A stretch of DNA of 64,000 nt from an uncultured Gammaproteobacteria bacterium. Its GTDB lineage: Bacteria; Patescibacteriota; Microgenomatia; UBA10105; UBA927. The translations under genes and the position numbers were made by a program. This document shows, piece by piece, positions 35,436 to 63,883 of this stretch; position 1 is the first letter of the stretch; every line of letters starts with the position of its first letter. The stretch covers positions 772,801 to 836,800 of the forward strand of contig CAYGFH010000001.1 in assembly GCA_964349125.1 (NCBI GenBank), given 5' to 3'. Under the pieces are notes generated by a model that saw nothing but the letters and a program-made list of their open reading frames with translations, made no database searches and had not been told where the DNA came from.

Positions 35436-35459
35436 ATGCACATTTACAGTACAAGAGTA
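35436..35459 (+). repeat. partial copy (3' 24 nt, 2 mismatches) of the 316-bp repeat, upstream of gene A
   Basis: ATGCACATTTACAGTACAAGAGTA versus the repeat end ATGCACATTAACAGTTCAAGAGTA. Confidence 0.6.
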
Positions 35460-36326: not shown

Positions 36327-36343
36327 TTTTGCATTTCCATTGT

Positions 36344-36659
36344 TTGGAACTACTCTTGAACGAAATGGATAGTTCGAGGATGCAAGCAATGTCCTCCGGA
36401 GGACATTGACGTCGTGAGACAGTCAGTGTTGGTGCCATTAAGGTACCTTGGGATACAGATGATTTGTGATGTGTCGAATTTTATCGACGCCCCATAGACC
36501 ATCCGTATTCCACCCTCTGCAAACTACGGATGTGTATCCGTACTGATGAGTCCAAAAGGACGAATTTGCAGAAAGAAAAGAATCAAGAAATTATGACACC
36601 ACTCCATAGTCGGGGAGTGCGGTCGTAATCGACTGATGCACATTAACAGTTCAAGAGTA
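36344..36659 (+). repeat. 316-bp structured intergenic repeat, copy 1
   Basis: Identical to 38116-38431. 11-bp terminal inverted repeat TACTCTTGAAC/GTTCAAGAGTA. Internal hairpins include CAATGTCCTCC|GGAGGACATTG and competing ATCCGTA/TACGGAT/ATCCGTA. Confidence 0.9.
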
Positions 36660-36802
36660 GTAATAGTAAAACTGGATATGGGTCGATACAAGAATATACT
36701 TCAATGTATGTCTTTGTATCGTCCCATTTTCAGTTGAAGATACGGATGAATATTCGACTTGTTCGAAGCACCGCTGGAATTATCAAAAAAACTACCCAGG
36801 AG

Positions 36803-38104: not shown

Positions 38105-38115
38105 CAGCACTGCGC

Positions 38116-38431
38116 TTGGAACTACTCTTGAACGAAATGGATAGTTCGAGGATGCAAGCAATGTCCTCCGGAGGACATTGACGTCGTGAGACAGTCAGTG
38201 TTGGTGCCATTAAGGTACCTTGGGATACAGATGATTTGTGATGTGTCGAATTTTATCGACGCCCCATAGACCATCCGTATTCCACCCTCTGCAAACTACG
38301 GATGTGTATCCGTACTGATGAGTCCAAAAGGACGAATTTGCAGAAAGAAAAGAATCAAGAAATTATGACACCACTCCATAGTCGGGGAGTGCGGTCGTAA
38401 TCGACTGATGCACATTAACAGTTCAAGAGTA
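38116..38431 (+). repeat. 316-bp structured intergenic repeat, copy 2
   Basis: Identical to copy 1 as read by eye. Confidence 0.9.
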
Positions 38432-38642
38432 TACATGTTGGTGATTGGACTACAAAATAGGAACAGAAAGTTTCATTTTTTTCTGGGCCTGTTAGTAGTC
38501 CAATATCAAATCCATTCTATTTCCAAGACAAGGAGCATGATCACGACCAATAATCAAAGGGGCGGTTCGCACTTAATTAAGTAAGCCTGGTCAGCTGAAC
38601 AATGGTGATATTTGAAACAAAAAAATCAATGTGGAGCAGAAA

Positions 38643-39815: not shown

Positions 39816-39820
39816 CCTGA

Positions 39821-39832
39821 ACACTCTTGAAC
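39821..39832 (+). repeat. isolated copy of repeat terminal motif ACACTCTTGAAC downstream of gene C
   Basis: Matches the 5' inverted-repeat end of the 316-bp element. Confidence 0.45.
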
Positions 39833-40058
39833 TTTAACAATTGAATAATAGGGAATTGGGGACTCTCGAAAAGAGTGTCGTTCAATTTGATGCTGCCGCA
39901 TCTGAGATCTAGAGATTAATTAGTTAGGTGCCTTTGTGCGCCCTGCCAAATTTCTTTAGATCTTCCCTTGTTCGTTTGAGTTTCGATTATATAAATCGAG
40001 ACTGAAATGAGCAGGGGATGGTAATTATGCGTAAGGCAAATATGTTGATTTTACTGTG

Positions 40059-40088
40059 TTGACAAGATAGTGGGATTGCCAGTACAAT
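40059..40088 (+). promoter_or_regulatory. consensus promoter TTGACA-18-TACAAT
   Basis: TTGACA at 40059-40064 and TACAAT at 40083-40088. Confidence 0.6.
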
Positions 40089-40239
40089 ACATCTTTGCCC
40101 TAGATGCAAGGTGCAAATGTCAATCAAGTTTCCAAGATTGACTATATTTTTCATGAGAAGCAATAAACTATATACATATAATCACTTAAAGGAGATTGTT
40201 GTGTAGCCGTTTTTCTTCTCGTCGAAAGACGAATTGTAA

Positions 40240-40261
40240 CCCCGCATCTGGCGGGGTTTTT
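40240..40261 (+). terminator. rho-independent terminator-like hairpin
   Basis: CCCCGC-atctg-GCGGGG followed by TTTTT. Confidence 0.65.
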
Positions 40262-40266
40262 AGTAG

Positions 40267-40326
40267 GTCGCTGCTTTTTCTGATTCAGAGAAGAAAAGCA
40301 AGCGAATCACTATCCCCGAAGGGGAT
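40267..40326 (+). repeat. two-hairpin module upstream of the rRNA operon (direct repeat of 44472-44527)
   Basis: GTCGCTGCTTTTTCTGATTCAGAGAAGAAAAG...ATCCCCGAAGGGGAT closely resembles the downstream copy. Confidence 0.6.
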
Positions 40327-40365
40327 TTCAACAGAAATCATTCGCACATTACATTGATCTGAAAT

Positions 40366-40441
40366 TGGGCCCGAAGTTTACCTGGTTGAACGCTTCATTT
40401 GCAATGAAGAGGTAGTCGGTTCGAGTCCGATCGGGTCCACC
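40366..40441 (+). tRNA. tRNA-Ala (anticodon UGC), CCA encoded
   Basis: Full cloverleaf folded by hand. Acceptor GGGCCCG/CGGGTCC with G3:U70, D-arm GTTT/GAAC, anticodon loop TTTGCAA, T-loop TTCGAGT, A73, CCA. Confidence 0.9.
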
Positions 40442-40689
40442 ACGTAACGTCCGAAAGAGCGGACCATGTGGCAAGCCGCAGACAAGAAAGTTCTCGTTTC
40501 GAGACCAGTTACTTCTCTAAGTAACTGATCTCGCGACAAGAGCGCGTTTTGCTCATTAACATTTTGTAAATGACCTTTATATACATGCAGGTGAAATTCC
40601 TGGTATATGAAGTATTGTTATGTAATTAATAAGTAGTTGCATCGTAAGGGATAATCGATTTGATTCTCTTACATGTAAACCCCGATTTA

Positions 40690-40706
40690 ATCGGGGGAAA
40701 ATTTCG
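40690..40706 (+). other. hairpin CCCCGATTTAATCGGGG in the tRNA-23S spacer (partner-like hairpin at 44110-44126)
   Basis: Near-identical hairpins CCCCGATT(T/A)ATATCGGGG flank the 23S 5' and 3' ends, suggesting processing sites. Confidence 0.5.
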
Positions 40707-40764
40707 TAAAATGAACAATGGCCATCCCGCCGCCGAGGCGAGGATGGATCTTTTGTTCTCTGCA

Positions 40765-44095
<3,331 letters not shown>

Positions 44096-44325
44096 AACAA
44101 AGGTTTGATCCCCGATTATATCGGGGTGAAACTCTGTTCAGATACGAATTTTCTGTGTAGGAGCCATTTTGGTTATCCCTTACGGAGCAATTACTTGAGT
44201 GTGTGATGTCATTTACAAAATTTATATGAAGATCTCTGAAGGTATCCCGTTTCACGGGATAGTTCACAGTATGCTTTTTCTCTAGGAATCGAAAAAGCAA
44301 CTGTTCACTAACCGCTTTAGAGTCT

Positions 44326-44443
44326 TCCAGTCTTTTGAGCGACGTGGTACCACCCGATCCCTTTCCGAACTCGGAAGTGAAACGCGTTAGCGCCGACAAT
44401 ACTTGATTCGCGAGAATCTGGGAATATAGGTCAAGGCTGGGGG
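44326..44443 (+). rRNA. 5S ribosomal RNA
   Basis: CCGAACTCGGAAGTGAAACGCGTTAGCGCCGA loop C/helix III consensus. Helix I CCAGTCTT/AAGGCTGG. Confidence 0.8.
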
Positions 44444-49952: not shown

Positions 49953-51713
49953 CTACTGATGCGTGCGTCCTTCACAGAGGGATTTGAACGAGAAAATAGC
50001 ATACTGTTTATTAGCTGACGTATACGATGGGGTATAGTTTCTCAGAAAATACGCCAACTCTATATCCGGAAGGTTTGTGTCGTTGCGCACATCCTCAACT
50101 GTTACATAGGAGATAGAATACTTTTTCATCAGATCACAGCGTTGTTTTTCATCCCGAGTCTCATACATGATATCCATGATAGGCATGCGATTTTCTTTAT
50201 ATCCTGCGCTCCATGCAAAGTATGGCCATCCCAAAAAGACCGGCCGACCGGCTAGAGAAGCAGGGTGATACAGATAATTGCTGTTTAAAAATACATCACC
50301 CGGACTGGTATGTGTCGCTATCCACGTAGCCGTTGGATGCACATCGGACAGTGTTCCTTTTGCGTCGTTGTATATCACAAAAAAATCAATAATTCCTGTG
50401 AGAGTCAATACTATAATCATGCACCCAGAAGCGAATACTCCCACTGATTGCATAATCACACTTCTCTTTTTTAGGATGGCACTCATGATTGATACAATAA
50501 CATGGGCGCTCAACATATTTCCAAAAATAAGGAAGAAGTTGAAGAATTTATGATTTGCAGATGCCTCTATAGAGAATTTAACAAGATTTGGCAGGATAAA
50601 TAGCGGGATCATCGGTAGCACGAATAGCCGTGATCGTTTTGGAATCAGGAAAAATCCAACAGGAATAAGTATGAGGTGCAGCCCTATATTTTGCCACCAG
50701 TACGAGATCATATGCAGTGTTTTTTGAATGATCGTTGCCTGTTTTTGCAGTTCATTGTGAATGGTATATCCCGGATACCACTCAAGAGGGCTCCCACTGC
50801 CTCTAACCGCGAGAAGCTGTGGGATGATGAGCTCGAGAGCGAGCACACCGGTAAAAAACAGAAATATGCGAAGTGTAGGGAAACAAAAGAAGTATATGCT
50901 CATAAAAACAGCGCAAATTAACAAGGCTGGTTGATGGAAAAAAGGAAACATGCCAAGCGTTATTCCCCAGAATATCGCCCAGGGAATTTGTTTCTTCCAG
51001 TGGATATCGATGAGACGCAGTGTGGTGATGATAAACAGTAACACTATCGCGAAAGCAGCCGCCAGATGGCGCTGATTGGTGTAAATATTTAGGTTCCAAA
51101 ATGCAGTGATCTCACCGGGACCCCACGGGGCGAATGCCGGAAAATCTTTGGCATGCACAATGTCGGTCACGGTATCTATGGTGATCGGGTGCAATGTAAA
51201 AAAGCGGATGAATCCAAATGACCCATTAAACAGGAAAAACACCAGTGCGAGCACAGCGGTAAATTTAGAGTGAGTAAACCTCCATGTTAAGTAATAAATA
51301 CTTAACAAAAGAAGTACAAAACCTGCGATACTGGGTAAATTAAGTGCCCAATCAATTCGCATGCCCAGACGTTCAAAAATGCCTACTATCATATAGAAGA
51401 GAAAGTGATATCTGATAGGCTCTCCGGGGAAAATCGGATACTGCACGTTCAGGTTGAAAAATCGATCCAAATTGTCGCCCATAGAAAATGAGCGTATGAG
51501 CGGGATATGGGCGCCAAAATCGCTCCAGAGCTTGTATGCGATGCGGATATCGTGGGTCTTTGCATCGTACGAAAACGTATGAAACATGAGCCATGATGCA
51601 AAGGTAATGCAAAGGACGATGATGAAGATATCAAAGAAGGGGAGTGTGAGTTTTTTCGATGCCCATATGCGTTTCATGATCTCTATTGTTTCATTGTGTG
51701 CTGTCTGATGCAA
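49953..51713 (-). CDS. polytopic membrane protein, putative GT-C-type glycosyltransferase
   Basis: More than 12 TM helices with a large C-terminal extracytoplasmic domain. Clustered with PMT-like and YYY proteins. Confidence 0.55.
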   Translation of the reverse strand: MHQTAHNETIEIMKRIWASKKLTLPFFDIFIIVLCITFASWLMFHTFSYDAKTHDIRIAYKLWSDFGAHIPLIRSFSMGDNLDRFFNLNVQYPIFPGEPIRYHFLFYMIVGIFERLGMRIDWALNLPSIAGFVLLLLSIYYLTWRFTHSKFTAVLALVFFLFNGSFGFIRFFTLHPITIDTVTDIVHAKDFPAFAPWGPGEITAFWNLNIYTNQRHLAAAFAIVLLFIITTLRLIDIHWKKQIPWAIFWGITLGMFPFFHQPALLICAVFMSIYFFCFPTLRIFLFFTGVLALELIIPQLLAVRGSGSPLEWYPGYTIHNELQKQATIIQKTLHMISYWWQNIGLHLILIPVGFFLIPKRSRLFVLPMIPLFILPNLVKFSIEASANHKFFNFFLIFGNMLSAHVIVSIMSAILKKRSVIMQSVGVFASGCMIIVLTLTGIIDFFVIYNDAKGTLSDVHPTATWIATHTSPGDVFLNSNYLYHPASLAGRPVFLGWPYFAWSAGYKENRMPIMDIMYETRDEKQRCDLMKKYSISYVTVEDVRNDTNLPDIELAYFLRNYTPSYTSANKQYAIFSFKSLCEGRTHQ

Positions 51714-52932
51714 GAATTGCTCCAGCAGCTTTTATTCCTAGCTCAACTGCATAATTCGTGCCTCTATCCCAAGGGACAATACTATCCATATTTGCAAGAA
51801 ACACATTGGGGATAGGTGATTCTAGTGACGGAGCTTTTTTGGAGTAATTAACCTGATGAACAGGTTGAGCATAGGGAGCGGTGAATAGATATGATTTCGT
51901 AAATCGTAAATCGTAAATCGTTAATCGCGATAATTTGGATATATAGGGCATGAACTCTTTTAACAGTTGTTGTTTTGTCATTGTCAAATACCGGTGTCCG
52001 TTCGGCAGATAATTGCCAATATAGGTAATATGGTTGCCTCCATAATGTTTTTTATCCATAAAATTTGTATGGGCGACGATTGCCAGAAATGGAAATGTGC
52101 GGTCGAGAACTGAGAGCCAATATACAGAATCAAGAATCGGTTTTTTCGTTTCCAGAATAAGCACCTGCGCATGAAGATGGGGGATAGTGAGCGATGCTGG
52201 TTTTGCGATACCTGGGAATATTTTTTCAGCAATAGGCGTGGGCGTGGTTACGAGTGTTCTGTCGAATCTTGTATCGATTGACGTTACTGTGGTACCAGTT
52301 TTAATTATTCCACCCCGTTTTTTAATTTCCGAGACAATCGCATCAACGAATGTCTGGAATCCACCATCAAAATACACAAGTGAGGGCGTCCGTTTGTGAA
52401 TACGTGCCCAGAGCCAAGACGCAGCGATTGCGTTATCTAAATCGCCGAACTTACCAGCCATCAGTGGCTCCCAAATTGTCTCCCATGCCCTTAGTCCACC
52501 CCAGCGGATAAAAAATTCTTTTGCAGTAATCCCTTCAAGTGTTTGCCAAAATGGATATAGTTTGCAAAACGCCACGATTAAGCCAGTACGAAGTTTATCA
52601 GAAATAGAAAGGCCATTGAATTTTAATAAGTGCATGGGACTATCAAATTGATGAAACTCGCCACGCCAGTAATTTGATGTGTTTGGACGTTTTGTTATAA
52701 GTTTGTCGCCGATGCCCAATTCATGAGCCAGTGAGAGGATCGCCACATCATTGGTAAACATATGATGATATGCGCCTTCCAAGTGCCACTGCCAATCCTT
52801 CTGCCTGAATCCGTATGCAAGTCCTCCGAGATACGATTCTCGTTCAAACACGGTCACTGTATGTCCGGATTTGGTCAGGGTGTACGCAGCGGTTAGCCCT
52901 GTAATGCCCCCGCCAATGATTGCGATTTTCAT
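51691..52932 (-). CDS. FAD-dependent oxidoreductase (amine-oxidase/PPOX-like, Glf-like not excluded)
   Basis: N-terminal IAIIGGGITGLTAA...VTVFERESYLGG dinucleotide fold. C-terminal GTNYAVELGIKAAG motif. Confidence 0.65.
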   Translation of the reverse strand: MKIAIIGGGITGLTAAYTLTKSGHTVTVFERESYLGGLAYGFRQKDWQWHLEGAYHHMFTNDVAILSLAHELGIGDKLITKRPNTSNYWRGEFHQFDSPMHLLKFNGLSISDKLRTGLIVAFCKLYPFWQTLEGITAKEFFIRWGGLRAWETIWEPLMAGKFGDLDNAIAASWLWARIHKRTPSLVYFDGGFQTFVDAIVSEIKKRGGIIKTGTTVTSIDTRFDRTLVTTPTPIAEKIFPGIAKPASLTIPHLHAQVLILETKKPILDSVYWLSVLDRTFPFLAIVAHTNFMDKKHYGGNHITYIGNYLPNGHRYLTMTKQQLLKEFMPYISKLSRLTIYDLRFTKSYLFTAPYAQPVHQVNYSKKAPSLESPIPNVFLANMDSIVPWDRGTNYAVELGIKAAGAILASDSTQ

Positions 52933-54644
52933 TGGGTTATTATAGCATCGTCTGGTAATGAACTGTTTTCATAAAAAAATCCTAACGTTTCACCAGTCTC
53001 GTTATCAAAATATTCGTATGTAAATGTTGGAAGTGCCTCTCTAATGGTTACAATTTCTTCTTTGCTGGGGTTTATTAGTAAAAAGGGCTGACCTTGATAC
53101 TTATCAAATAGTTGTGATTTTTCGATAGTAGTAAATATGTATTGATTATTTGTGCGAAAGAATAGCTCTTTTCCTAAATGAAAAATTGGATACGCTCCTA
53201 TAAGCACTTCAGTATGTTTGGGTATGACTTCTTGAATTCGATTGGCTAGCTTTGTGCTATAGGGATAGTCTTGAAGATCGTTTAATATCATTTTATTAAG
53301 ATGATAGTTGTTATTAATTATGAATACCATAAATCCAATACCAATGACTAATCGTTTTATCCATATTCGATTAAATGATAGAGCTTTGGAGAGCGCAAAA
53401 AGCCCGAGCGTAATTGTGAAAGCTAGGAGAGGAAACATGACAGCTAACCGATGGAATGCGGGGGGTTGAACAGTTAAAGAATATCCTATTATGACAGCGC
53501 TTATGGTAAACAAAATGTATACAAAGGGTACCTTTTTTTTACAATATTTAACTAATATCCAAAACCCTAACATAAAGAGAATAAAAGTATAAGGTTCCAT
53601 CAAGGCTTGTTTTCCAAAATAATATCCATCTGTTCCGCCAATGCCTGGGAGGAACAACGCAAGTAATGATTGTGATATTTGTACACCAAGAGCTGTACTA
53701 GGTGAGAGGATATTCTCTGCCCCTTGTTGGTATATGCCTTGACTGCTTGTAAATGTGCTTACAGTGCTGATTCGATCATAAAAATATGGAAACACAAATA
53801 TATTGTGAATAATAAATGGAAGTAAAATAATCGCAAACACCGTGTATAAGATTTTAAGTGAATATATGTGGATTTGTGATTTGTTAATTACATACTGGTA
53901 AAAAATGAACAAAATGCTTAGCGGAAGCGTGATATAGGAAGCGGTATAAAAGAGGAAAGATAATCCTAAATAGACGCCAGCTAGAATTGCATGCGCATGG
54001 TGTGCATTGTTCCTGTGGATAAAATGATACAAAAACGCAATGACACAGAGTGCACTGCTGGCAACATGCATATTTAATGTTGACATGTAAAAATTGCTTG
54101 AGGAAAAAATAAAAATAAGTGATGCGATAGCTGCAAAATTTGAGGATATGAGCCGTTTAGAAAGTATATAAAGATAGAATACTATGGCGATATTATACCA
54201 AGCAGTTGAAAATCGAACGGATAACAGTGACGTAGATAATAGTGATAATATCTGTTTTTGAATAAGAAAATATGGGATAGGATATGCTGCTATAGAGCTT
54301 GTTGGGTAGCCATTAAACCAATCAATGTGTTGCATCGCTGGTAGTGTGACAGAGGCATGTGCAAGAACAAATTCATCTCGGTGATAATGGTCAGGTAATG
54401 AATTTACAAACAATGGGATCATGATGATAAGTCCCGAAAACATAAGTACAATTCCCACATCTCTTTTATCTAACGGAAAAAGTGGCTCGATTGATTTTTG
54501 GTTCCAAAAATATGAAATGGTGAGACTTAGTGCGATGAGCCAGGAGAATAGCCCAAACAAATTTACCGATCTTGTGAGTATTTGGGCAATCGTAATTGAC
54601 AGGAGAACAAAGATAAGAAATAGATACACTAGATTCTTTCGCAT
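52929..54644 (-). CDS. GT-C fold membrane glycosyltransferase (PMT/ArnT family 39/83-like)
   Basis: About 14 TM helices. First-loop acidic motif HYHRDEF. ATGA overlap with the upstream gene. Confidence 0.55.
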   Translation of the reverse strand: MRKNLVYLFLIFVLLSITIAQILTRSVNLFGLFSWLIALSLTISYFWNQKSIEPLFPLDKRDVGIVLMFSGLIIMIPLFVNSLPDHYHRDEFVLAHASVTLPAMQHIDWFNGYPTSSIAAYPIPYFLIQKQILSLLSTSLLSVRFSTAWYNIAIVFYLYILSKRLISSNFAAIASLIFIFSSSNFYMSTLNMHVASSALCVIAFLYHFIHRNNAHHAHAILAGVYLGLSFLFYTASYITLPLSILFIFYQYVINKSQIHIYSLKILYTVFAIILLPFIIHNIFVFPYFYDRISTVSTFTSSQGIYQQGAENILSPSTALGVQISQSLLALFLPGIGGTDGYYFGKQALMEPYTFILFMLGFWILVKYCKKKVPFVYILFTISAVIIGYSLTVQPPAFHRLAVMFPLLAFTITLGLFALSKALSFNRIWIKRLVIGIGFMVFIINNNYHLNKMILNDLQDYPYSTKLANRIQEVIPKHTEVLIGAYPIFHLGKELFFRTNNQYIFTTIEKSQLFDKYQGQPFLLINPSKEEIVTIREALPTFTYEYFDNETGETLGFFYENSSLPDDAIITQ

Positions 54645-54672
54645 ATGAAATACTAATTATTCTACTGGATAA

Positions 54673-56982
54673 TTGATCAGCGTTCGGTATAATCATTTCA
54701 TGGGAACTGATTTTTGGATAGTTGTCAAATGGTGGGTGGCTTTATTTCTCATTGGTTCAGTGTCCTTTCCGCTCACAAAAAAACTGTTTTCCTCATGGTA
54801 TGACCGCGGATATATGTTTACCAAGGCCGTTGGTATGGCTTTTGTCACATATATTGTGTACATCGCAGCAATGGCGCGAGTATTGCCGTTCACCTTCGAA
54901 TCAATAGTATTGGCGATGATTACTGTATTTTTCTTTGGATTACTCGTGCATGTGTTTACAAGTAGGGAAGTGGAGGGGAGAAGGGATACGCGGATGGGTA
55001 CATTGTTGAAATATCCAAAAGCATTCATGCACCATGCTCCCCAAAAAATGCGCTTGGTGATGATTCTGATACTTGAAGAACTCTTTTTTTTCGGGCTGCT
55101 ACTTTTTTGGTCGTGGGTAAAAGGGCATGAGCCCTCGATCCATGGACTGGAAAAATTTATGGATTTTGGATTCATGCAAACAATTCTCAACAGCAGATAT
55201 TTCCCGGCGCCGGATATGTGGTATGCAGGATATCCGATAAATTACTATTACTTCGGTCATACGGTTGTTGCGGTATTGACAAAATTTTCCAATATTTCAC
55301 TCATCTACACGTTTAATCTTATGCTCGCTACACTGTTTGCGCTATGCGTCACACAGAGCTTTAGTATCGGTGTACATATTCTGCAGTGGGGGATGCCAAA
55401 GCTTCGCATTGGCATGGTGATTGCTGGCGCTATCCTCATAGCATTCCTCGTATCTCTCGGGGGAAACATGCAAACCATTTATGCGTTTACCAAAGGGTAT
55501 ACAGGTGAAAACGTACAACCATTTTGGCATTTGCTGTGGACTCCCGGAGAATTTATAGGAAAATTGCCGGAGGGATTGGAGCGGTACTGGTATGCGAATG
55601 CCACGAGATTCATACCCTATACAATTCATGAATTTCCAAGCTACTCGTTTGTTGTATCCGATGTGCATGGGCATGTCATGAGCATACCATTCGTGCTTCT
55701 TGCAATCGCGTTGCTTTTGGCACTATTTTTATCTGATGGAAAATCACTCAACACGCAGAGATCTGATGCACAGAGCCTCCGGTATGTGTTGTATGGGCTG
55801 CTCGTATCTATCCTTCTGATGACAAATGCTCTCGATGGGCCGATTTATTTAGGGTTATTCCTCGTTCTGTATAGCGTATTCCACTGGAAATATATACGCG
55901 CATTTGGCAAACACTGGAAGTATATTGTGTTGACTGCAGGATCTGTATGTATTGCGGCAGTGCTGGGAAGTATTCCCTTTATGAGTAAATTTTCTTCGTT
56001 TGTCTCAGGTATTGCGCTCAATTGTCCGCCCGCGTTTTTGGCGAATCAAAAAATAGGCCCCCTCCTTTTTGAAGAAATTGAAAAGTGTCAGCGATCTCCT
56101 GTCTGGATGATGTGGTTACTGTGGGGATTTTTCATCTATTCAGGCATATTCTTATTTGCATGGTATGCCAAGCATCATATGCAAAAGAAAGCAGAGGAAA
56201 AACCTCACACATTGGTACTGGTATTTGCAGTGTTTTTCGTTATTTCCATTGCCCTTATCATTTTTCCTGAGATTTTTTACTTCAAGGATATTTATCCCCA
56301 ACACTTCAGAAGTAACACCATGTTTAAGCTGGGGTATCAGGCATTTATCATGTTTTCAATTATTTCAGGATACTCGATCATGTATGCGGTGAACGCGATA
56401 CGAGAGAAACTCACACGTAAGAATAGATATGTCCTATGGGTATTCTTATTACTGTTACTCCCTCAATTATTTCTTGTGTCTATTTACCCGATATTCAGCG
56501 TTCGTTCATACTTTAACAGTTTGCTGACCTATAAAGGCCTCGATGGAATTCAGTGGATTGCGGAGCAGTATCCTGATGATTATGCAGGGATTTTATGGCT
56601 TAAAGGTCAATTGAGTATGGAGATTCCCACCGCAGATTCACTCCCAGTTATTGTAGAGGCAGATGGGGATAGCTACACCGATCATGCACGGTATAGTGCA
56701 TTTACAGGCGTACCGACTGTGATCGGTTGGCCTGTACATGAATGGTTGTGGCGTGGTTCTTACGATGTCGTTGCTCCTCGGCGGGAGGAAGTGCGTGTTA
56801 TTTACGAGTCTGATAGTTATGAGGAAACACGGGAAATTCTTCAGAAGTATGGGGTTAAATACATAGTGGTCGGAGGGATGGAACGTGAAAAATTTACTCA
56901 ACTCAATATCACAAAGCTTGAAGATATGGGCAGACCTGCGTTCACAATCGGTGAGTTAACGATCTATGAGATCACTGACTGA
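54673..56982 (+). CDS. DUF2298 (Chlor_Arch_YYY) family membrane protein
   Basis: Diagnostic GYPINYYYFGH motif. About 20 TM helices. Large C-terminal soluble domain. Confidence 0.7.
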   Translation: MISVRYNHFMGTDFWIVVKWWVALFLIGSVSFPLTKKLFSSWYDRGYMFTKAVGMAFVTYIVYIAAMARVLPFTFESIVLAMITVFFFGLLVHVFTSREVEGRRDTRMGTLLKYPKAFMHHAPQKMRLVMILILEELFFFGLLLFWSWVKGHEPSIHGLEKFMDFGFMQTILNSRYFPAPDMWYAGYPINYYYFGHTVVAVLTKFSNISLIYTFNLMLATLFALCVTQSFSIGVHILQWGMPKLRIGMVIAGAILIAFLVSLGGNMQTIYAFTKGYTGENVQPFWHLLWTPGEFIGKLPEGLERYWYANATRFIPYTIHEFPSYSFVVSDVHGHVMSIPFVLLAIALLLALFLSDGKSLNTQRSDAQSLRYVLYGLLVSILLMTNALDGPIYLGLFLVLYSVFHWKYIRAFGKHWKYIVLTAGSVCIAAVLGSIPFMSKFSSFVSGIALNCPPAFLANQKIGPLLFEEIEKCQRSPVWMMWLLWGFFIYSGIFLFAWYAKHHMQKKAEEKPHTLVLVFAVFFVISIALIIFPEIFYFKDIYPQHFRSNTMFKLGYQAFIMFSIISGYSIMYAVNAIREKLTRKNRYVLWVFLLLLLPQLFLVSIYPIFSVRSYFNSLLTYKGLDGIQWIAEQYPDDYAGILWLKGQLSMEIPTADSLPVIVEADGDSYTDHARYSAFTGVPTVIGWPVHEWLWRGSYDVVAPRREEVRVIYESDSYEETREILQKYGVKYIVVGGMEREKFTQLNITKLEDMGRPAFTIGELTIYEITD

Positions 56983-57065
56983 TGCTCCCTTTGTCCTTGA
57001 CAAGTGTGCATAAATACCATTAACTAGAAGATATACAGCACTTATCATACAGGGCTTATTTTTTT

Positions 57066-58157
57066 ATGAAGCGAGACTCATACCGATTTTTAGCGTACAT
57101 ACTCATTATTGCTGTATGTTCTTTGAGTATGTTTCCGTTTTCTTCGATTGTTCAAGCAGGCACATTGACTCCAGCGAAGGTAACTATTTCGGATTCACGG
57201 GCAGGGAATGCCTCCACGACCTATGATTTTGCATTCACTACGTCAGTAACTACATCCATAAAACAACTGAATGTTGTGTTTTGTACCACGGCATCAGGAG
57301 CATGTTCGACACCGACCGGGATAGATACGACAGGAGCAACAAGAGCGAGTGATAACGTTGCAGGAACAGGGAGAACTGATGATTTCACAGGAAACGGAAC
57401 ACTATCAACGGTGATCACGACTCCCGCATCACAAGCCACACAGGCCGTAACTGTATCCTACACAGGGATAACCAATCCGACGACCACCAACACTACATTT
57501 TTTGCACGCATAACCACATACTCTGACACCGGGTCAACGGTGATTGATACGGCTTCCGTCGCGTTTGCTATTCTCACAAGTACGTCAATCGCTGTAAGTG
57601 CCTCTGTTGATTCCACATTTACGTTTTCGGTTGCGGCAGCCAATTCAGGAAGCGTGAATGGTGCATCGATTGATATAACAACTTCTACTGCAAACACCAT
57701 TCCATTCGGCACGCTCTCGTCAGGAGTGCCGAAAGTAGCAGCTCATGATCTCTCTGTGGTATCAAACGCATTAGGGGGATACACTATTACCGTAAAAGCG
57801 TTAGCAGATCCACCGCTTGTTGATGCCTCTAATAATATTGATAAGTTTAGCGGTACTAATGACACTCCAACGACCTGGTCGTCACCGGCCGGATCATCGG
57901 CGAATGTAAACACAGGGTTTTTCGGATACACGACGAACGATGCATCACTTGGGACCGGAACAGCAACCCGATTTACGGGCTCCGGAGGCAATAAATGGGC
58001 CGGGACAACAACGTCACCGCTTGAAGTGGCATATAGTGCCGTAGGGGTATCGTCTGCGGAAGTAACTCGTGTCGGATGGCAAGCTGAAGTAAACGGACTC
58101 CAGCCAGCCGGTGCATATACAGGCACTGTCGTGTTGGTGGCAACACCAACGTATTGA
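57066..58157 (+). CDS. secreted Thr/Ser-rich surface protein, WxL-like C-terminal domain (paralog 1)
   Basis: Signal/TM, T/S-rich region, C-terminal GYTTND...RFT...GW.AEV...AGAYTGTVVLVATPTY block shared by three paralogs. Resemblance to WxL is tentative. Confidence 0.5.
   Translation: MKRDSYRFLAYILIIAVCSLSMFPFSSIVQAGTLTPAKVTISDSRAGNASTTYDFAFTTSVTTSIKQLNVVFCTTASGACSTPTGIDTTGATRASDNVAGTGRTDDFTGNGTLSTVITTPASQATQAVTVSYTGITNPTTTNTTFFARITTYSDTGSTVIDTASVAFAILTSTSIAVSASVDSTFTFSVAAANSGSVNGASIDITTSTANTIPFGTLSSGVPKVAAHDLSVVSNALGGYTITVKALADPPLVDASNNIDKFSGTNDTPTTWSSPAGSSANVNTGFFGYTTNDASLGTGTATRFTGSGGNKWAGTTTSPLEVAYSAVGVSSAEVTRVGWQAEVNGLQPAGAYTGTVVLVATPTY
57150..57460 (+). repeat. 311-bp segment identical between paralog 1 and paralog 2 (other copy 59213-59523)
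   Basis: Nucleotide identity as read by eye across the N-terminal coding halves. Antisense ORFs 57221-57439 and 59284-59502 have identical translations. Confidence 0.85.
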
Positions 58158-59083
58158 TCTTTATGAAACACTTTGTGTATACGTATCGTAATCTCCTGAC
58201 TTTTTTACTGTTGCTGGTGTCCGGAGGATTTTTCGTTGTCCGTTTGGGGATCGCACAGAATGCGGCAAGTTCGCAAACATTGGAAATTTCCCCTCCCAGC
58301 CAGGAAATAAAAGTTGATCCCGGTCAAACAGTAAAGATAAAGGCAAAGATCCGCAATCGTAGCGGAGAATCGCTCTCTATACTCGCACGAATAGAGGATT
58401 TTACTGCGTCAGGGGAGGGCGGACAGGTAGCACTTATAGAAAAAGGGCCGTATGCAATTTCTTCCTGGACTATCATTGATCAGCCGGCATTTACATTAAA
58501 GTCTGGAGAAACAAAAGAGATTGTGGCAACTGCATCTGTTCCTGTCGGTCTTGCCGGCGGGCGATATGGATCATTTGTTTTTTCTGCCGGAGGAGGGCAG
58601 GCAGGGGCTGGCACTGCTGCTGTATCGCAGGAAGTCGCCTCATTGTTTTTACTTCGTATTTCCGGACCAGTTTCAGAGGTGTTAACCGCTGATGCGTTTA
58701 CTATGCCATCGTTTGTCGAATTTGGCCCGGTGCCTATGACCGTAAAGTTCTCCAATACTGGAAACGTACATGTCAGGCCAAACGGACTAATTAATGTCCG
58801 AAATATGTTCGGAAAAACTGCTGCGGACGTGCTGTTTAAAGGGGAAAATGTATTTCCAGGAGCATCCCGCTCTCAAACAGTTACTCTCGATAAAACATGG
58901 CTATTCGGGCCGTATACAGCTCAGGCAGTGTTAACATATGGAAGTAAAAATGAATCTCTGACGATTACCTCTACCTTTTTTGCATTCCCACTGCGGATTG
59001 CAGTGGTATTGGGTATCGTTCTTGGTGTATTGTATATGATGAGACGCCGGTTGAAAAAAGCACTCAAGGCACTCGTGGGATAA
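58154..59083 (+). CDS. DUF916/DUF3324-like cell-surface protein with C-terminal membrane anchor (CscA-like)
   Basis: LEISPPSQEIKVDPGQTVKIKAKIRNRSGESL...IEDF block resembles DUF916. C-terminal TM followed by MMRRRLKKALK. Confidence 0.5.
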   Translation: MIFMKHFVYTYRNLLTFLLLLVSGGFFVVRLGIAQNAASSQTLEISPPSQEIKVDPGQTVKIKAKIRNRSGESLSILARIEDFTASGEGGQVALIEKGPYAISSWTIIDQPAFTLKSGETKEIVATASVPVGLAGGRYGSFVFSAGGGQAGAGTAAVSQEVASLFLLRISGPVSEVLTADAFTMPSFVEFGPVPMTVKFSNTGNVHVRPNGLINVRNMFGKTAADVLFKGENVFPGASRSQTVTLDKTWLFGPYTAQAVLTYGSKNESLTITSTFFAFPLRIAVVLGIVLGVLYMMRRRLKKALKALVG

Positions 59084-59092
59084 TCAATCAGT

Positions 59093-60220
59093 ATGAAGTA
59101 TTCTGCCAAAACTATTCATAAAAAAATCCACCATACTAAGAAAGTAAGCGCTATTGGTGTGCTTATTGTGTTGCTTGTGAGCGTACCCTTATTCGCTCAG
59201 CTATCCACGAAAGTTCAAGCAGGCACATTGACTCCAGCGAAGGTAACTATTTCGGATTCACGGGCAGGGAATGCCTCCACGACCTATGATTTTGCATTCA
59301 CTACGTCAGTAACTACATCCATAAAACAACTGAATGTTGTGTTTTGTACCACGGCATCAGGAGCATGTTCGACACCGACCGGGATAGATACGACAGGAGC
59401 AACAAGAGCGAGTGATAACGTTGCAGGAACAGGGAGAACTGATGATTTCACAGGAAACGGAACACTATCAACGGTGATCACGACTCCCGCATCACAAGCC
59501 ACACAGGCCGTAACTGTATCCTATACAGGTATTACAAATCCTACGACGACAGATTCTACCTTTTTTGCCCGCGTGACAACATATTCTGACACCGGGTCAA
59601 CGGTGATTGATTCAGCGTCTGTCGCATTTGCCATTTTAACCACAACATCTATAGCCGTTACCGCATCGGTAGCATCAACGTTTACGTTTTCTGTTGCTGC
59701 GGTGACAACAGGATTGGTCAACGGGGCGACAATCGACGTGACAAGTACCACCGCAAACACTATTCCATTTGGAACACTGTCATCTGCAACACCTAAAATA
59801 GCTTCTCATGATCTTACAGTCACGACAAATGCAGCGAATGGATACACTGTCACGGTCAAAGCGGCTGCAGATCCGCCACTTGTTGACAGTACGAATAATA
59901 TAGATAAATTCAGTGGTACGAACGCAACACCCACAACTTGGTCGTCACCAGCGGGTTCTAGTGCGAGCGTAAACACTGGATTTTTTGGATACACGACAAA
60001 CGATGCAACGCTTGGTACCGGGACAGCCGATCGGTTTACGAGTTCAGGAGGTAATAAATGGTCAGGTACAACCACATCGCCGCTTGAAGTGGCGTATAGT
60101 GCGACAGGTATCGGCTCTTCTGAAGTTACGCGGATAGGATGGCAAGCCGAGGTGAATGGATTGCAGCCGGCAGGAGCCTACACTGGCACAGTCGTTTTAG
60201 TCGCGACGCCGACTTATTAA
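59093..60220 (+). CDS. secreted Thr/Ser-rich surface protein, WxL-like (paralog 2)
   Basis: Same architecture and C-terminal block as 57066-58157. First 311 bp of the mature region are identical. Confidence 0.5.
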   Translation: MKYSAKTIHKKIHHTKKVSAIGVLIVLLVSVPLFAQLSTKVQAGTLTPAKVTISDSRAGNASTTYDFAFTTSVTTSIKQLNVVFCTTASGACSTPTGIDTTGATRASDNVAGTGRTDDFTGNGTLSTVITTPASQATQAVTVSYTGITNPTTTDSTFFARVTTYSDTGSTVIDSASVAFAILTTTSIAVTASVASTFTFSVAAVTTGLVNGATIDVTSTTANTIPFGTLSSATPKIASHDLTVTTNAANGYTVTVKAAADPPLVDSTNNIDKFSGTNATPTTWSSPAGSSASVNTGFFGYTTNDATLGTGTADRFTSSGGNKWSGTTTSPLEVAYSATGIGSSEVTRIGWQAEVNGLQPAGAYTGTVVLVATPTY

Positions 60221-60238
60221 TATATCTTCGTTTTCAGT

Positions 60239-60661
60239 ATGAATATGCCGCAACGTGCGCTCTATATACTCTTTGGCATCGCAATCGGATATGTGTTTCA
60301 TGATTTGGCTTATGACAGCAGTCAAAGCATTCTCAAAAGAATACATTTTATATCCAATAAATCCACGTCACAAACGGTACTCGGTGATGTGTCTGCCGAT
60401 CAGTTCATCACGTCTGTTGTGTACACCGGTAATCGATTTGAGCCTAGGACTGTACGAGTGCGGAAAGGAAACTATGTGGTTATTACTAACAGGAGTAACA
60501 CATCGCTCATGTGGTTGGTATCAGACATGCCTGGCGTTATGACGACACGCGGATATGCCGAAGGTGAACAATTCCAGTTCACATCCGGGCAGGTAGGGTC
60601 GTTCACTGTGTCTAATAAGCTGCTTCCTCAGTCAACACTTCGCATTACCGTGGATGAGTAA
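60239..60661 (+). CDS. membrane-anchored beta-rich hypothetical protein
   Basis: N-terminal TM. No recognised motif. Confidence 0.45.
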   Translation: MNMPQRALYILFGIAIGYVFHDLAYDSSQSILKRIHFISNKSTSQTVLGDVSADQFITSVVYTGNRFEPRTVRVRKGNYVVITNRSNTSLMWLVSDMPGVMTTRGYAEGEQFQFTSGQVGSFTVSNKLLPQSTLRITVDE

Positions 60662-60822
60662 TATGCCACTTTACGCTTGAATTCACAGCTGTCTTTGCGG
60701 GAATAATTTCTCGAGACAAACTGAGTAACAACACAATTTTTGGTTAAAATAATAAGCACTCATATTAGAATTCTGATATGTGTAAAAAAAATCTAACACA
60801 TATACCGCACATTATGTGCAGC

Positions 60823-60855
60823 AGTTAGTGTATAGATTATATCTATACACTAACT
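60823..60855. promoter_or_regulatory. 33-bp perfect palindrome (15-bp arms AGTTAGTGTATAGAT / ATCTATACACTAACT)
   Basis: Lies in a convergent intergenic region, next to a 13-nt palindrome GCACATTATGTGC at 60807-60819. Confidence 0.45.
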
Positions 60856-60890
60856 CGCAGGGAAGGTAGTCAGAAACTTTTGCAACAATG

Positions 60891-62246
60891 CTATGCGTCT
60901 TTATTATATTTATGAATGATCCGAAGTATTGTTCTATCTGAGACAGAAAGCTGTAACTGTTCTTTTATTTGCTTTGTCGTTAGATTCTTTTTTGAATAGA
61001 GCATACGTATGTGTCGAATGGTCTCCATGGATACAGATGACGTTCTGGTGTGGTGTGGGCGGGTTGATTTACGTGTTAGTGTTGCGTATTCAGGTAAAGA
61101 TACTGCCCTGTCTCTCCATCTATAAATTGTGGATCGATGTATGCCCAATAGAGTGGCCGTCTTTATCACCGAGCCATTCTGAGATTTCAACGTATCTATA
61201 ATCTGTTGGGGGGTCACACGAGACAAACCCTCAACAGATGACACCGCTCGGTTCTCTGGTGCTATTTGCACTGCACTCAAATCTTCAACAGGGGCGCTGT
61301 TGGATATACGTTCTTCTATAGAAGAATTTGATGATATTAATAGCTTGAATGCCTTGTATATATTTCGGCGTTTACGGATTATCCAAAGTGCCATACCTAT
61401 GAATAGAAGAGAGGAAATAAATATTCTATATGGGAAGATAACGAGGAGTGTAGTTTTAGTAATAGTTTCGCCATTTTCTATTCGAGATTTTATTGTTGCC
61501 TTATAAATGCCCCATTTGCTGTTTTGTATTGTAAATACGGTCTTCCAGGATCTGGATTTACCAGGTAATATTGTTTTCTCATCCAGTTCTGCTGCATCTG
61601 ATTGTCCCCACAACGGAGTTATTGTGAGCGTTGGTTTCGTTGAAAAATAATGAAGTGAATTATTCGTTATTCGCACAGTGCTAGTAATAGGCCCATGTTC
61701 GTATATCAGTTTTTCAAATTGAAACTGGGATATTACAGCCTTGTTCTTCTGAGATTCCTGTATGCCTATGTTTGCAAGCGTGACGACTCCTATTTTTGAC
61801 CCTATTGTTCCGTTGGGGTAGAGAGGCGTAAAGTATATGATCGCATAATACCCTCCTATAGGGACAGTGGAGGGAATAGCAATTTTGACGAAGAATTCGT
61901 GTGATTGACGGGCTGGAATAATGACATCAGGCTCCTCAATGGTAATCCATCGGGCAAGCGGCGAAATCTCAATAGTCGGATCAGGTGTGAACCCGGATAT
62001 CTCATCGGATGAGTCAAATCCCTCTATTGTTGCGCGTAACGGCATAGGTGCGTCTGTAAGGTTCTCAATAGAGATAGGGTAGAGATGCTTTGCACCAGGT
62101 TGCAGTTGTATTTTTAATATGACGGGTGACACGCGAAGTGATGAGGAAATAAAATTAAGCCCGGAAGCCTGCACAAGAGAGATCGGCCTGAGAAGTAGGC
62201 TCGCCAGCAACATGATAAAAAATGATGTATTTAGTATTATTTTCAT
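60891..62246 (-). CDS. DUF916-like extracellular domain + TM + cytoplasmic tandem HTH tail
   Basis: Signal peptide. LRVSPVILKIQLQPGAKHLYPISIENL (DUF916-like). TM FISSLLFIGMALWIIRKRR. C-terminal HTHs IHRSTIYRW and SDRTILRIIHKY. Confidence 0.55.
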   Translation of the reverse strand: MKIILNTSFFIMLLASLLLRPISLVQASGLNFISSSLRVSPVILKIQLQPGAKHLYPISIENLTDAPMPLRATIEGFDSSDEISGFTPDPTIEISPLARWITIEEPDVIIPARQSHEFFVKIAIPSTVPIGGYYAIIYFTPLYPNGTIGSKIGVVTLANIGIQESQKNKAVISQFQFEKLIYEHGPITSTVRITNNSLHYFSTKPTLTITPLWGQSDAAELDEKTILPGKSRSWKTVFTIQNSKWGIYKATIKSRIENGETITKTTLLVIFPYRIFISSLLFIGMALWIIRKRRNIYKAFKLLISSNSSIEERISNSAPVEDLSAVQIAPENRAVSSVEGLSRVTPQQIIDTLKSQNGSVIKTATLLGIHRSTIYRWRDRAVSLPEYATLTRKSTRPHHTRTSSVSMETIRHIRMLYSKKNLTTKQIKEQLQLSVSDRTILRIIHKYNKDA

Positions 62247-62260
62247 ATAGTTTTCACTAT

Positions 62261-63337
62261 TTAATATATGGGAACAACAACGTAGATAACGGTGTTGGTG
62301 TATGCTCCTGCCGGTGTGGTGGCGTCTCCTGTGACGCGATATGAAATATTGAATTGTTCGTTGACAACCGGATTGTTTTCTACAATATCTGTGTGATCCG
62401 CGACGGGGTCACCGGGAGTTGCTGTTGAAAACCCAGCATACTTCGGTCCGCCAAGCGTAAACCTATCGGCTGCGCCCCCGGCGAGTGACGTATCGTTGGT
62501 GGTGTATCCGAACCCAGTACCAGTCCATGCTGTGGGTGATCCGTTTGTCCCTGCGTAATCGACGATAGTATTGGATTCAAACGTGAGTGGGCCAGTTTCG
62601 CGGCCATACACTGTATACCCGTTGTATGCATTTGTGGAAGTTGTAAGTGTCGTAGTTTTACTGCTGTCGGTATAAGAATTTGAAGAGTCCAATGTGTTAA
62701 ATGTGAGTGTTTCGGAGGAGATACCAAACGTTAATGAAGGGACAGATGTTGTGGCGCTTGATGTCGGTCCAAATCGAGATTCAGTAAAGTTGCCCCATTT
62801 ACTCTTGACCTTTATTTTATATGTTGTATTTTGTTTTAATCCTCTGACAAACTCACCTGTCGCGCCGCCCCAGTTGCCATATGTTTGCCAATCTTCCTGT
62901 CCAAGAGTTATGTCTATCGTGTTGTCGTCCTGAACAAACCGTGTCGTTGTAAAGTCGTCATCTGAAATAGCGATAGCGTACAGTGCATCTGCAGGTCCGG
63001 CACCATTTGTGATAATAAATTTTAATCTATCGTAATTTATTGCCGGGTTAGTGAATATGGGAGCTGGAGGGGTATTTGCCTGTAACGTTTCTATAAGTCC
63101 GCCGTTTACTGAATAATTTGTTGATGCAGGATTTCCAAATTCCAATCCTCCTACATAACCAAACAGAGAGAAATTGTCCGAGCTGCCTGAGTCAATACCT
63201 CCTGAACCGAAGTCATACTGAGTCAGTTCAAAGTTCGTGCTTGTTGGTCCGGCAATGACTTTCGTTGAAGTAATCAAAAAAAACGATACGAACAGACTGC
63301 ACGTAATTGAGAATCCAAAAATATTTTTCATACGCAT
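62261..63337 (-). CDS. secreted surface protein, WxL-like C-terminal block (paralog 3)
   Basis: TAWTGTGFGYTTNDTSLAGGAADRFT and AGAYTNTVIYVVVPIY align with the other two paralogs. Confidence 0.5.
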   Translation of the reverse strand: MRMKNIFGFSITCSLFVSFFLITSTKVIAGPTSTNFELTQYDFGSGGIDSGSSDNFSLFGYVGGLEFGNPASTNYSVNGGLIETLQANTPPAPIFTNPAINYDRLKFIITNGAGPADALYAIAISDDDFTTTRFVQDDNTIDITLGQEDWQTYGNWGGATGEFVRGLKQNTTYKIKVKSKWGNFTESRFGPTSSATTSVPSLTFGISSETLTFNTLDSSNSYTDSSKTTTLTTSTNAYNGYTVYGRETGPLTFESNTIVDYAGTNGSPTAWTGTGFGYTTNDTSLAGGAADRFTLGGPKYAGFSTATPGDPVADHTDIVENNPVVNEQFNISYRVTGDATTPAGAYTNTVIYVVVPIY

Positions 63338-63463
63338 GTGTATTCATCACAGTATCATATACATTTGCGACATTCAATACTATAAATTACTGCGATGTGG
63401 CAAATGTATATGTCATACCCAATTCGGAAGAAATGAACACACATGGGTGAAGTCTGAGAGGTA

Positions 63464-63883
63464 TTAGTATGGGAGTGTGAACGCTCTGGTGCCGAAGAGG
63501 AAGGGGAAGTATTCGAACGTACAGATTATGGGAGTTTGAGATCTGTCACAGACTATGTTTGTTATGGCCTGTTCAAGTGTTAAATGTGCACTTGTGGTCG
63601 TTATAACAAGCTTTGCTGCTGACTTCATGAGCGGTTCATCAACATACATGATATCTATAGTGCTTGTGAAGATAGTTTGAAGGAACTCACGGGCGATGGA
63701 ATGGCTCATGTGCGTCGCGATACGTTCATAGGTAGACATGATTGTGGAAGGTGACGTGTAGAGATGGTATCCTTCCTGCGCAAAAAATCGAAAATATGCC
63801 CCGGCCATCTGGTGTTTGCTATCTGAACGGTCTATGAACGCGTACATTGCCGATTGTGTAATATATACTTTCTTGCTACCCAT
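63464..63883 (-). CDS. hypothetical protein
   Basis: ORF only. Confidence 0.4.
   Translation of the reverse strand: MGSKKVYITQSAMYAFIDRSDSKHQMAGAYFRFFAQEGYHLYTSPSTIMSTYERIATHMSHSIAREFLQTIFTSTIDIMYVDEPLMKSAAKLVITTTSAHLTLEQAITNIVCDRSQTPIICTFEYFPFLFGTRAFTLPY

Follow-up and report, generated by a model that had tools for sequence, protein, structure and literature searches.

What kind of surface structure is encoded by six closely packed genes for secreted and membrane-anchored proteins in an uncultured bacterium outside the Firmicutes? The question is raised by a locus at positions 57066-63337 of a 64,000-nt stretch of DNA (contig CAYGFH010000001.1, GenBank assembly GCA_964349125.1), the whole of which was analysed and is called the window here; all coordinates are positions within it. 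Three ligands (A1, A2 and A3) and two membrane-anchored partners (B1 and B2) are packed there into 6.3 kb. An earlier note on this sequence had named these five open reading frames (ORFs) and read them as a WxL/Csc-like complex; all five were present, together with a sixth, smaller ORF (C). Our analysis makes it rather probable that the locus encodes the Microgenomatia form of the Pam pilus of the candidate phyla radiation (CPR), that is, an usher-less fibre built by donor-strand exchange. The homology of the C-terminal domain (CTD) of the ligands, the domain architecture, the fold and relatives of the chaperones and the synteny were observed in this study; strand exchange, order of subunits, anchoring and a function in host contact are suggested by analogy with the work on Mycosynbacter.

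Cryo-electron microscopy (cryo-EM) has solved the structure of the thin filaments made by Ca. Mycosynbacter amalyticus (Saccharimonadia), a parasite that belongs to the CPR (bioRxiv 10.64898/2026.03.03.709456). According to that preprint, a single linker strand in the pilins PamA and PamB joins an N-terminal beta-sandwich to a truncated immunoglobulin (Ig)-like CTD with an open groove, and this groove takes up the linker of the adjacent subunit (donor-strand exchange). Apart from these, the system comprises a third pilin, PamE, a one-domain tip, PamT, the chaperones PamC and PamD, which are PapD/FimC-like and keep a C-terminal membrane helix, and the membrane anchor PamR, which has an RbmA-like 2xFnIII part, a C-terminal transmembrane (TM) helix and an N-terminal strand. 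Homologues were reported there mainly in Saccharimonadia and Microgenomatia.

Organisation and host of the locus

The features of the locus (A, ligands; B, membrane-anchored partners; C, small ORF; NTD, N-terminal domain) are as follows.

A1, 57066-58157, + strand: 363 aa; secreted two-domain major-pilin-like protein with N-terminal beta-sandwich, conserved linker and Pam-type CTD
A1 linker TSTSIAVSASVDS, 57576-57614, + strand: putative donor strand, homologous to the A2 linker; role proposed from the Pam preprint
B1, 58154-59083, + strand: 309 aa; membrane-anchored chaperone-like protein related to PapD, WxLIP and PamC/D; two Ig-like domains; TM helix 58988-59041
B1 hairpin EDFTASGEGGQVALIEKGPYAISSW, 58394-58468 (aa 81-105), + strand: candidate complementing strand
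A2, 59093-60220, + strand: 375 aa; secreted two-domain major-pilin-like protein, paralog of A1; NTD aa 43-182, linker 183-195 (59639-59677), CTD 196-375
C, 60239-60661, + strand: 140 aa; N-terminal TM helix 60257-60313; weak cupredoxin-like beta-sandwich; conserved last gene of the module
B2, 60891-62246, - strand: 451 aa; second chaperone-like protein; two Ig-like domains, TM helix 61377-61424, cytoplasmic helix-turn-helix (HTH) tail aa ~345-448
A3, 62261-63337, - strand: 358 aa; PamT-like tip/adhesin subunit with signal peptide, PamT-like N-terminal segment, inserted FN3 and Pam-type CTD; conserved donor linker absent
139-aa ORF, 63464-63883, - strand: no function by family match; accompanies the module

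Thus A1, B1, A2 and C are read from the + strand, and B2 and A3 from the - strand. The true start of B1 is probably 58163, since its homologues are 306 aa long. For C, the Pfam search gave a weak match to Cupredoxin_1 (E 0.15); the protein may serve as an anchor or terminator.

Homologues of A2, B1 and A3 numbered 311-569 each, more than 560 CPR homologues being found for A2, and the source names were all those of CPR lineages (Gottesmanbacteria, Levybacteria, Roizmanbacteria, Microgenomates and 'Patescibacteria group'). The host is a member of the Microgenomatia, and the genome had been correctly recognised beforehand as non-Firmicute-looking. Within the whole window, searches with hidden Markov models (HMMs) found the CTD in A1, A2 and A3 only, and the B family in B1 and B2 only.

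Assignment of the ligands to Pam pilins

No Pfam match was obtained for A1, A2 and A3. The NCBIfam model NF058581 ('Pam pilus system pilin subunit') matched all three proteins at model positions 2-148 of 148, with E-values of 8.9e-8 for A1 (residues 209-363), 1.8e-8 for A2 and 3.8e-7 for A3 (aa 208-358); the CTD of A2 alone reached 5.9e-10. The same model matched 35 of 35 CTDs tested and each of 51 A3-family members (best E 3.9e-13), and A1 was recognised by the CTD HMM with E 2e-55. Both NF058581 and NF058579, the PamT model, derive from the 2026 Pam preprint (bioRxiv 10.64898/2026.03.03.709456). At the level of sequence, these E-values together with the full coverage of the model establish the homology of the CTDs to Pam pilins, despite the curated threshold not being reached (see below).

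The model NF058579 ('CPR-type pilus protein PamT') matched A3 at aa 12-82 (E 4.4e-8) and 50 of the 51 A3 relatives (best E 4.7e-15). Positions 90-241 of this model can also match a CTD, as seen for an A2-type CTD (E 9.6e-4) and in 4 of the 35 CTDs. Pfam matches to fn3 were present in 29 of the 51 A3-family members, and the segment of A3 that precedes the CTD was poorly conserved (entropy 1.34 vs a mean of 1.14). From its PamT-like start, the FN3 domain and the lack of a conserved linker before the CTD, we infer that A3 is a tip or adhesin subunit.

The three ligands had been described as Thr/Ser-rich paralogs with a common C-terminal block. The block is real and far beyond chance; the proteins, however, are not three equal paralogs, but two close ones and a distant one. 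A1 and A2 share 85% identity over 353 aa, and the similarity of A3 to either is confined to the C-terminal part (38-40% identity over 136 aa, E 5e-15 to 5e-17). Thr and Ser together make up 31%, 32% and 24% of A1, A2 and A3, correspondingly, and the N-termini look, by eye, like signal peptides that end in VQA|G or VIA|G. The shared block is ~160 residues long, and its pattern, FGYTTND..L..G.ADRFT..G.K[WY]AG ... AG.Y..T....V..P.Y, is visible across 35 aligned CTDs of both subfamilies.

A profile of the block found 1831 cluster representatives at E<=1e-3. In 146 of the 149 best representatives the match stops no more than 3 residues from the C-terminus; 38 of these 149 proteins exceed 1000 aa, and 25 are CTD-only and shorter than 270 aa. 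The family spans three kinds of protein, namely small ones with nothing but the CTD, two-domain pilins and giants, with the CTD always C-terminal, a range of sizes that fits tips, shafts and adhesins with one common docking domain. Proteins of 2000-3800 aa that end in a Pam-type CTD include P0383, P0389, P0395, P0400, P0401, P0420, P0433, P0438 and others; the docking domain seems to be used for mounting very large adhesins on the same system.

Two observations concern the N-terminal domains. Positions 57150-57450 of A1 and the corresponding part of A2 form a stretch of ~300 bp with 100% DNA identity, within genes that are otherwise 60-83% identical, which suggests a recent gene conversion of the N-terminal domain. 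Furthermore, residues 49-70 of A2 (~59237-59302; KVTISDSRAGNASTTYDFAF), at the start of the mature NTD, also resemble the first WxL motif (VQVTD.RGT..GW.L.V), an observation that extends to P0083, and weak secondary matches of the CTD HMM lie inside N-terminal domains. This resemblance may reflect an old internal duplication, or merely a common strand-turn-strand pattern.

Structure model of A2 and the linker strand

The AlphaFold2 model of A2 (mean predicted local distance difference test score, pLDDT, 80.6) shows a beta-sandwich NTD with strands within residues 49-182 at pLDDT ~85-96, a linker (183-195) at pLDDT <50 and a beta-rich CTD (196-375). The linker TTTSIAVTASVAS, though disordered in the monomer model, shows higher conservation than the NTD: L182 and A191 are invariant, with conservation of at least 90% for S186 and V189. 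Such a conserved yet disordered segment is the pattern expected for a strand that would find its place only in a neighbouring subunit. As modelled, the layout of A2 (beta-sandwich NTD, single linker, CTD) matches the architecture described for the shaft pilins PamA and PamB.

That A1-A3 are independent monomeric adhesins of MSCRAMM/PapG type or parts of an S-layer-like coat, with B1 and B2 as unrelated Ig-like membrane proteins such as RbmA-like scaffolds, is highly improbable: the best Foldseek matches of A2 are indeed tandem-Ig adhesins (FnBPA, ClfA, SdrG, integrin legs) and the B family has weak matches to the models 'choice-of-anchor T' and 'putative S-layer protein', but the former are generic for the Ig fold (TM-scores 0.14-0.28), the NCBIfam matches of the B family are limited to the N-terminal 50 residues, and the strict pairing of pilin and chaperone genes as well as the specific Pam and WxLIP homology would be left unexplained.

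Membrane-anchored partners

Two membrane-anchored proteins interleaved among the ligands had been predicted, and the order of ORFs and the TM helices bear this out. B1 and B2 are paralogous, with 24% identity over 281 aa (E 5.6e-13), and each has a signal-peptide-like N-terminus, two beta-sandwich domains and a TM helix, located at aa 279-296 in the B1 model and at aa 275-290 in B2; B2 matched the B-family HMM with E 5.5e-21 over aa 10-304. With these membrane-anchored PapD/FimC-like chaperones with a C-terminal TM helix, the locus has a characteristic feature of Pam.

PF06030 (WxLIP_PGBD, formerly DUF916) matched 50 of 54 B1-family members (best E 9.3e-9); for the B1 of the window itself, E was only 0.036, and the Pfam scan returned no PF06030 match for B2. 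For comparison, 68 Firmicute WxLIP loci were collected by the motif NQIDKxxxYFDLK, one of the collected proteins matching PDB 9i1y with E 6e-43. In hhalign, the B family aligned with 32 Firmicute WxLIPs at 96.9% probability and E 1.8e-10 over 134 columns, covering domain 1 including its hairpin. The second domain, DUF3324 (PF11797, WxLIP_HBD), was undetectable by Pfam in the B family and not significant in the profile-profile comparison, and the B-family profile search of PDB sequences did not reach 9i1y. The first domain of the B family is a demonstrable relative of WxLIP/DUF916; of the 'DUF916/DUF3324-like' character proposed earlier for the anchors, the DUF916 half holds and the DUF3324 half was not detected. 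The NCBIfam matches 'choice-of-anchor T' and 'PACE-CTERM', which are partial and limited to the N-terminal 50 residues, were set aside as similarity of the signal-peptide region.

The hairpin of B1 has a low pLDDT (59-68) and above-average conservation (entropy 1.04 vs 1.26 for the ectodomain), and it aligns with the hairpin region of WxLIP. The WxLIP hairpin is predicted to insert as a strand that completes the WxL beta-sandwich (Hassan et al. 2023, PMC10599100), and the same completion of the pilin CTD by PamC/PamD is proposed in the Pam preprint (bioRxiv 10.64898/2026.03.03.709456).

The C-terminal third of B2 (60891-61346) is a peculiarity in its own right: past the TM helix, a cytoplasmic tail of ~150 aa carries a transposase-type HTH, with matches to HTH_23, HTH_29 and an IS481/IS630-type N-terminal region (Pfam, NCBIfam). 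The fusion is kept in a related locus, L071 (440 aa), and absent from four others, L001, L002, L072 and L073, where the homologues have 293-312 aa. The tail could be a membrane-tethered regulator sensing the load of pilins, or a domesticated insertion sequence fragment.

Comparison of the ligand domain with WxL

In the WxL/Csc clusters of Lactobacillales and Bacillales, WxL proteins, both small and large, are encoded together with WxLIP (DUF916-DUF3324-TM) (PMC1534035; PMC9772566; PMC10599100); solved structures are those of a WxL-WxLIP complex (PDB 9i25) and of a WxLIP (9i1y). If the locus encoded a complex of this type, the ligands would not polymerise; each would be held non-covalently by a membrane- or wall-associated DUF916-type partner and display its N-terminal domain. 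We consider this the strongest alternative to a Pam pilus, and an unlikely one. In its favour, the anchors are homologous to WxLIP/DUF916, and the logic of the gene cluster (at least two ligands plus a partner) and the architecture of the partner correspond.

The ligands speak largely against it. PF13731 (WxL) was run against 102 proteins from the two ligand families, among them the three of the window, and recognised none at E<=1, vs 41 of 44 Firmicute WxL-type domains in the same scan, which served as positive control. Reversely, NF058581 matched none of the 44 WxL-type C-terminal sequences (41 of them Pfam-confirmed) at E<=10. Global hhalign of CTD and WxL returned no alignment, and the hhalign alignment that was obtained had P 0.01-0.04 and a probability of 1-4%. 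Both Trp-x-Leu motifs are missing: the A3 subfamily has GY..Y, SYRV and V.YVV, and the A1/A2 subfamily has GY.V and V.LV at the WxL positions, the Trp of its GWQAEV being unrelated to the motif. Moreover, the curated family that lies closer is Pam, whose members form filaments by cryo-EM; the conserved inter-domain linker of A1/A2 resembles the donor strand of PamA/PamB; the host belongs to the CPR and not to the Firmicutes; and the locus has no LPXTG partner, the motif LP.[TSA]G being absent from all locus proteins.

A weaker similarity nevertheless stands above all controls. The blocks aligned by hhalign are collinear (FG...LTVTTNA.NGYTVTVK vs FG...VQVTD.RGT..GW.L.VK; PAGAYTGTV.LV..P.Y vs PG....Y.TTLTW.L.D.P). 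Against the CTD, three WxL alignments scored 23.3, 21.2 and 19.3, vs 9.5-16.2 for ten controls (WxL alignments in reversed form, and alignments of seven other beta-sandwich domains taken from the same proteins) and at most 16.8 for sixty column shuffles. WxL-type proteins took 20 of the 30 top ranks (6.7 expected) when the CTD HMM was run over 449 Firmicute ORFs, and pilin-CTD families took 42 of the 50 top ranks (26 expected) when the WxL HMM was run over 758 CPR proteins, some alignments spanning the first to the last motif; the sequences inside each ranked set are related, and both counts thus overstate independence.

The profile comparison with WxL, DUF916 and DUF3324, which the earlier note had singled out as decisive, gave a split outcome, negative for the ligands and positive for the first domain of the anchors. 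Its view of the C-terminal block as a WxL domain with replaced Trp fails as an assignment to the family and survives as a fair lead. Common ancestry of the Pam CTD and the WxL domain is judged likely, though unproven, with arguments about evenly balanced, because the profile similarity exceeds the controls, the partner is homologous, the gene pairing is conserved and the position is always C-terminal; this estimate refers to profiles and gene order.

Comparison with known systems

The locus resembles Pam in the NF058581 CTD family, the PamT-like subunit, the layout of NTD, linker and incomplete Ig-like CTD, the two membrane-anchored two-domain chaperones with a C-terminal TM helix, the absence of an usher and the CPR-only distribution. 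It differs in the FN3 inserted into the PamT frame of A3, in scores below the NCBI cut-offs, in the small TM cupredoxin-like gene C and the HTH tail of B2, and in that a PamR-like gene was not recognised. Mature pilins have one Cys pair in A1/A2 and none in A3, vs two or three in PamA/PamB, and the ATP-synthase neighbourhood reported for pamA was not seen in the examined part of the locus.

With WxL/Csc, the locus shares the homologous first domain of the partner, its arrangement of signal peptide, two Ig-like domains and TM helix, the predicted donation of a hairpin strand by WxLIP to complete the ligand beta-sandwich, and the collinear ligand blocks. Differences are the ligands unseen by the WxL Pfam model, the replacement of both Trp-x-Leu, the undetectable DUF3324, the absence of a CscD-like LPXTG partner and the CPR host; furthermore, WxL proteins are regarded as a platform bound to peptidoglycan and not as polymerising subunits.

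Chaperone-usher pili (Pap, Fim, Saf, CFA/I, Csu) are comparable in the incomplete Ig-like pilin domain and in the logic of donor-strand complementation and exchange, which for the locus would hold by analogy; PapG and CfaE were among the Foldseek matches of A2. In contrast to them, the locus has neither an outer membrane nor an usher gene (PF00577, Usher, matched none of the 11 ORFs at 49953-63883 in Pfam scans), the chaperone is membrane-tethered and not soluble, the candidate donor strand is an internal linker and not an N-terminal extension, and the pilins have an extra NTD. No sequence similarity was detectable between chaperone-usher pili and the locus proteins.

Proposed assembly

On the model of the Mycosynbacter filaments, A1, A2 and A3 would be exported by Sec, each ending in an incomplete Ig-like CTD with an open groove. 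At the outer face of the cell membrane, B1 and B2 would cap this groove with their conserved hairpin strand (donor-strand complementation). A3, with a groove and no conserved linker strand, would nucleate the fibre as tip or adhesin; A1 and A2 would then be added one after another, the linker of each entering the groove of the subunit ahead of it and driving out the chaperone, so that the fibre grows at its base. A chaperone or the small TM protein C probably keeps this base at the membrane. The 'non-covalently assembled surface complex' of the earlier note would thus be better put as a Pam-type donor-strand-exchange pilus.

Several points weigh against a Pam pilus. With NF058581, the window proteins score 30-35 bits and the matches taken together 30-39 bits, vs an NCBI naming cut-off of 55, and A3 scores 33 bits with NF058579, vs an equivalog cut-off of 240; therefore, NCBI would not name them Pam, and they represent a divergent Microgenomatia subfamily. 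No B-family member matched any NCBIfam Pam chaperone model. The CTD of A2 is modelled with moderate confidence, in blocks of pLDDT 48-89, and fold searches with A2 returned nothing beyond Ig-like domains of a generic kind and adhesins with two domains (YcnI, cohesins, MSCRAMMs, PapG, CfaE). Searches of PDB sequences (phmmer with A2 and B1; profile searches) gave nothing relevant and no solved Pam pilin. No PamR-like terminator gene was recognised in the window by Pfam, NCBIfam and HMM scans, which included no PamR model; B2 or C may fill this role, and a capped chaperone-subunit complex of WxL/Csc type is conceivable since such a terminator was not found. Finally, we found no report of filaments on any Microgenomatia cell.

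Module conservation and genomic neighbourhood

Five related CPR loci (L001, L002, L071, L072 and L073) preserve the pilin-chaperone groupings A-B1-C and A3-B2. The closest relative, L071, has the same order, neighbouring genes included; the more distant Microgenomatia loci, L001, L002, L072 and L073, have a pair of A3-type and B2-type genes and a triplet of A-type, B1-type and C genes, in some cases joined by additional pilin genes. In all five loci, the gene after the B1-type gene encodes 136-140 aa. In L001, L002 and L071, genes of 139-141 aa adjoin the module, each beside a small HTH_17 gene; the corresponding window ORF, 63464-63883, has no Pfam or NCBIfam match, and the HTH_17 counterpart would fall beyond the end of the window. 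L072 and L073 have an expanded module with an extra front gene of 311-312 aa, which matches neither the B-family nor the CTD HMM and adjoins a giant gene (1545 or 2645 aa); HMM search found no CTD in these giant neighbours. Both loci also have a prepilin peptidase (Peptidase_A24) at a distance of a few genes.

The module had been placed next to a GT-C glycosyltransferase cluster. This holds for the upstream gene 54673-56982, which is DUF2298 (E 5e-91), but 52929-54644 has a sub-threshold PMT_2 match only, and 49953-51713 has no Pfam match. Besides DUF2298 and the PMT_2-like gene, the upstream neighbourhood comprises a flavin amine oxidase and an unassigned membrane protein, and L071 alone has it in common with the window. 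Glycosylation as a conserved feature of the module was considered and rejected: GT-C genes adjoin the module in the window and L071 only and not in the four other related loci, and L002 has GT4 genes nearby instead. In PamA, extra density at Ser356 was fitted with a docked galactose (bioRxiv 10.64898/2026.03.03.709456). By analogy, O-glycosylation of the Thr/Ser-rich pilins is plausible; the gene neighbourhood is poor evidence for it.

Other features of the window

Elsewhere in the window, a perfect direct repeat of 300 nt occurs at 36344-36643 and 38116-38415. Each copy holds a type III hammerhead-like match (36517-36571; 38289-38343) to RF00008, with 42.3 bits vs a gathering score of 48.5 (E 9e-7). 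Between the two copies lies a 466-aa ORF (36704-38104) for which Pfam gave no match, and another unassigned ORF (38631-39815) comes after the second copy. The rRNA region (40367-44442) contains tRNA-Ala(TGC), a 23S gene (40759-44096) split by a group I intron (43453-43722), and 5S; a 16S gene was not detected upstream of it (33000-40800), even with relaxed thresholds. A 23S gene with a group I intron is common in this group of bacteria. Far from the pilus module, a 343-aa ORF (29366-30397, + strand), preceded by a 765-aa ORF (27061-29358), has LPETG at residue 308 and may encode a sortase substrate.

A possible relationship of Pam pili and WxL complexes

Taken alone, the locus is one more Pam operon, in a class where the 2026 preprint had already inferred homologues, and the chief gain is the connection to the Firmicutes. 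The Microgenomatia version has two pairs of a pilin and a chaperone; its PamT-like subunit bears an inserted FN3, and a small TM protein is also present. A link of Pam-type chaperones with WxLIP/DUF916 was not found in the Pam preprint (bioRxiv 10.64898/2026.03.03.709456), where neither WxL nor DUF916 is mentioned, or in the searchable literature, where we found no paper on WxL together with CPR or on DUF916 together with Patescibacteria, and no mention of WxL among the results listed for its combination with chaperone-usher, PapD or strand complementation.

There is about an even chance that Pam pili and WxL/Csc clusters are two branches of one ancient usher-less strand-complementation system of single-membrane bacteria, in which WxLIP would be a membrane-anchored pilus-type chaperone and WxL a diverged Pam-type acceptor domain. 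Its chaperone half is essentially secured by the present analysis, and its ligand half draws on the weak but specific profile similarity, the architecture and the gene pairing. If true, WxL complexes would be short donor-strand polymers or permanently capped chaperone-subunit pairs, and the WxL domain would be recast from a peptidoglycan-binding module to a strand-acceptor docking domain. Were the ligands homologous, the tractable enterococci, listeriae and lactobacilli would become models for an organelle of the uncultivable CPR, and the cryo-EM structures of the filaments would suggest a testable assembly mechanism for the virulence and adhesion clusters of WxL type.

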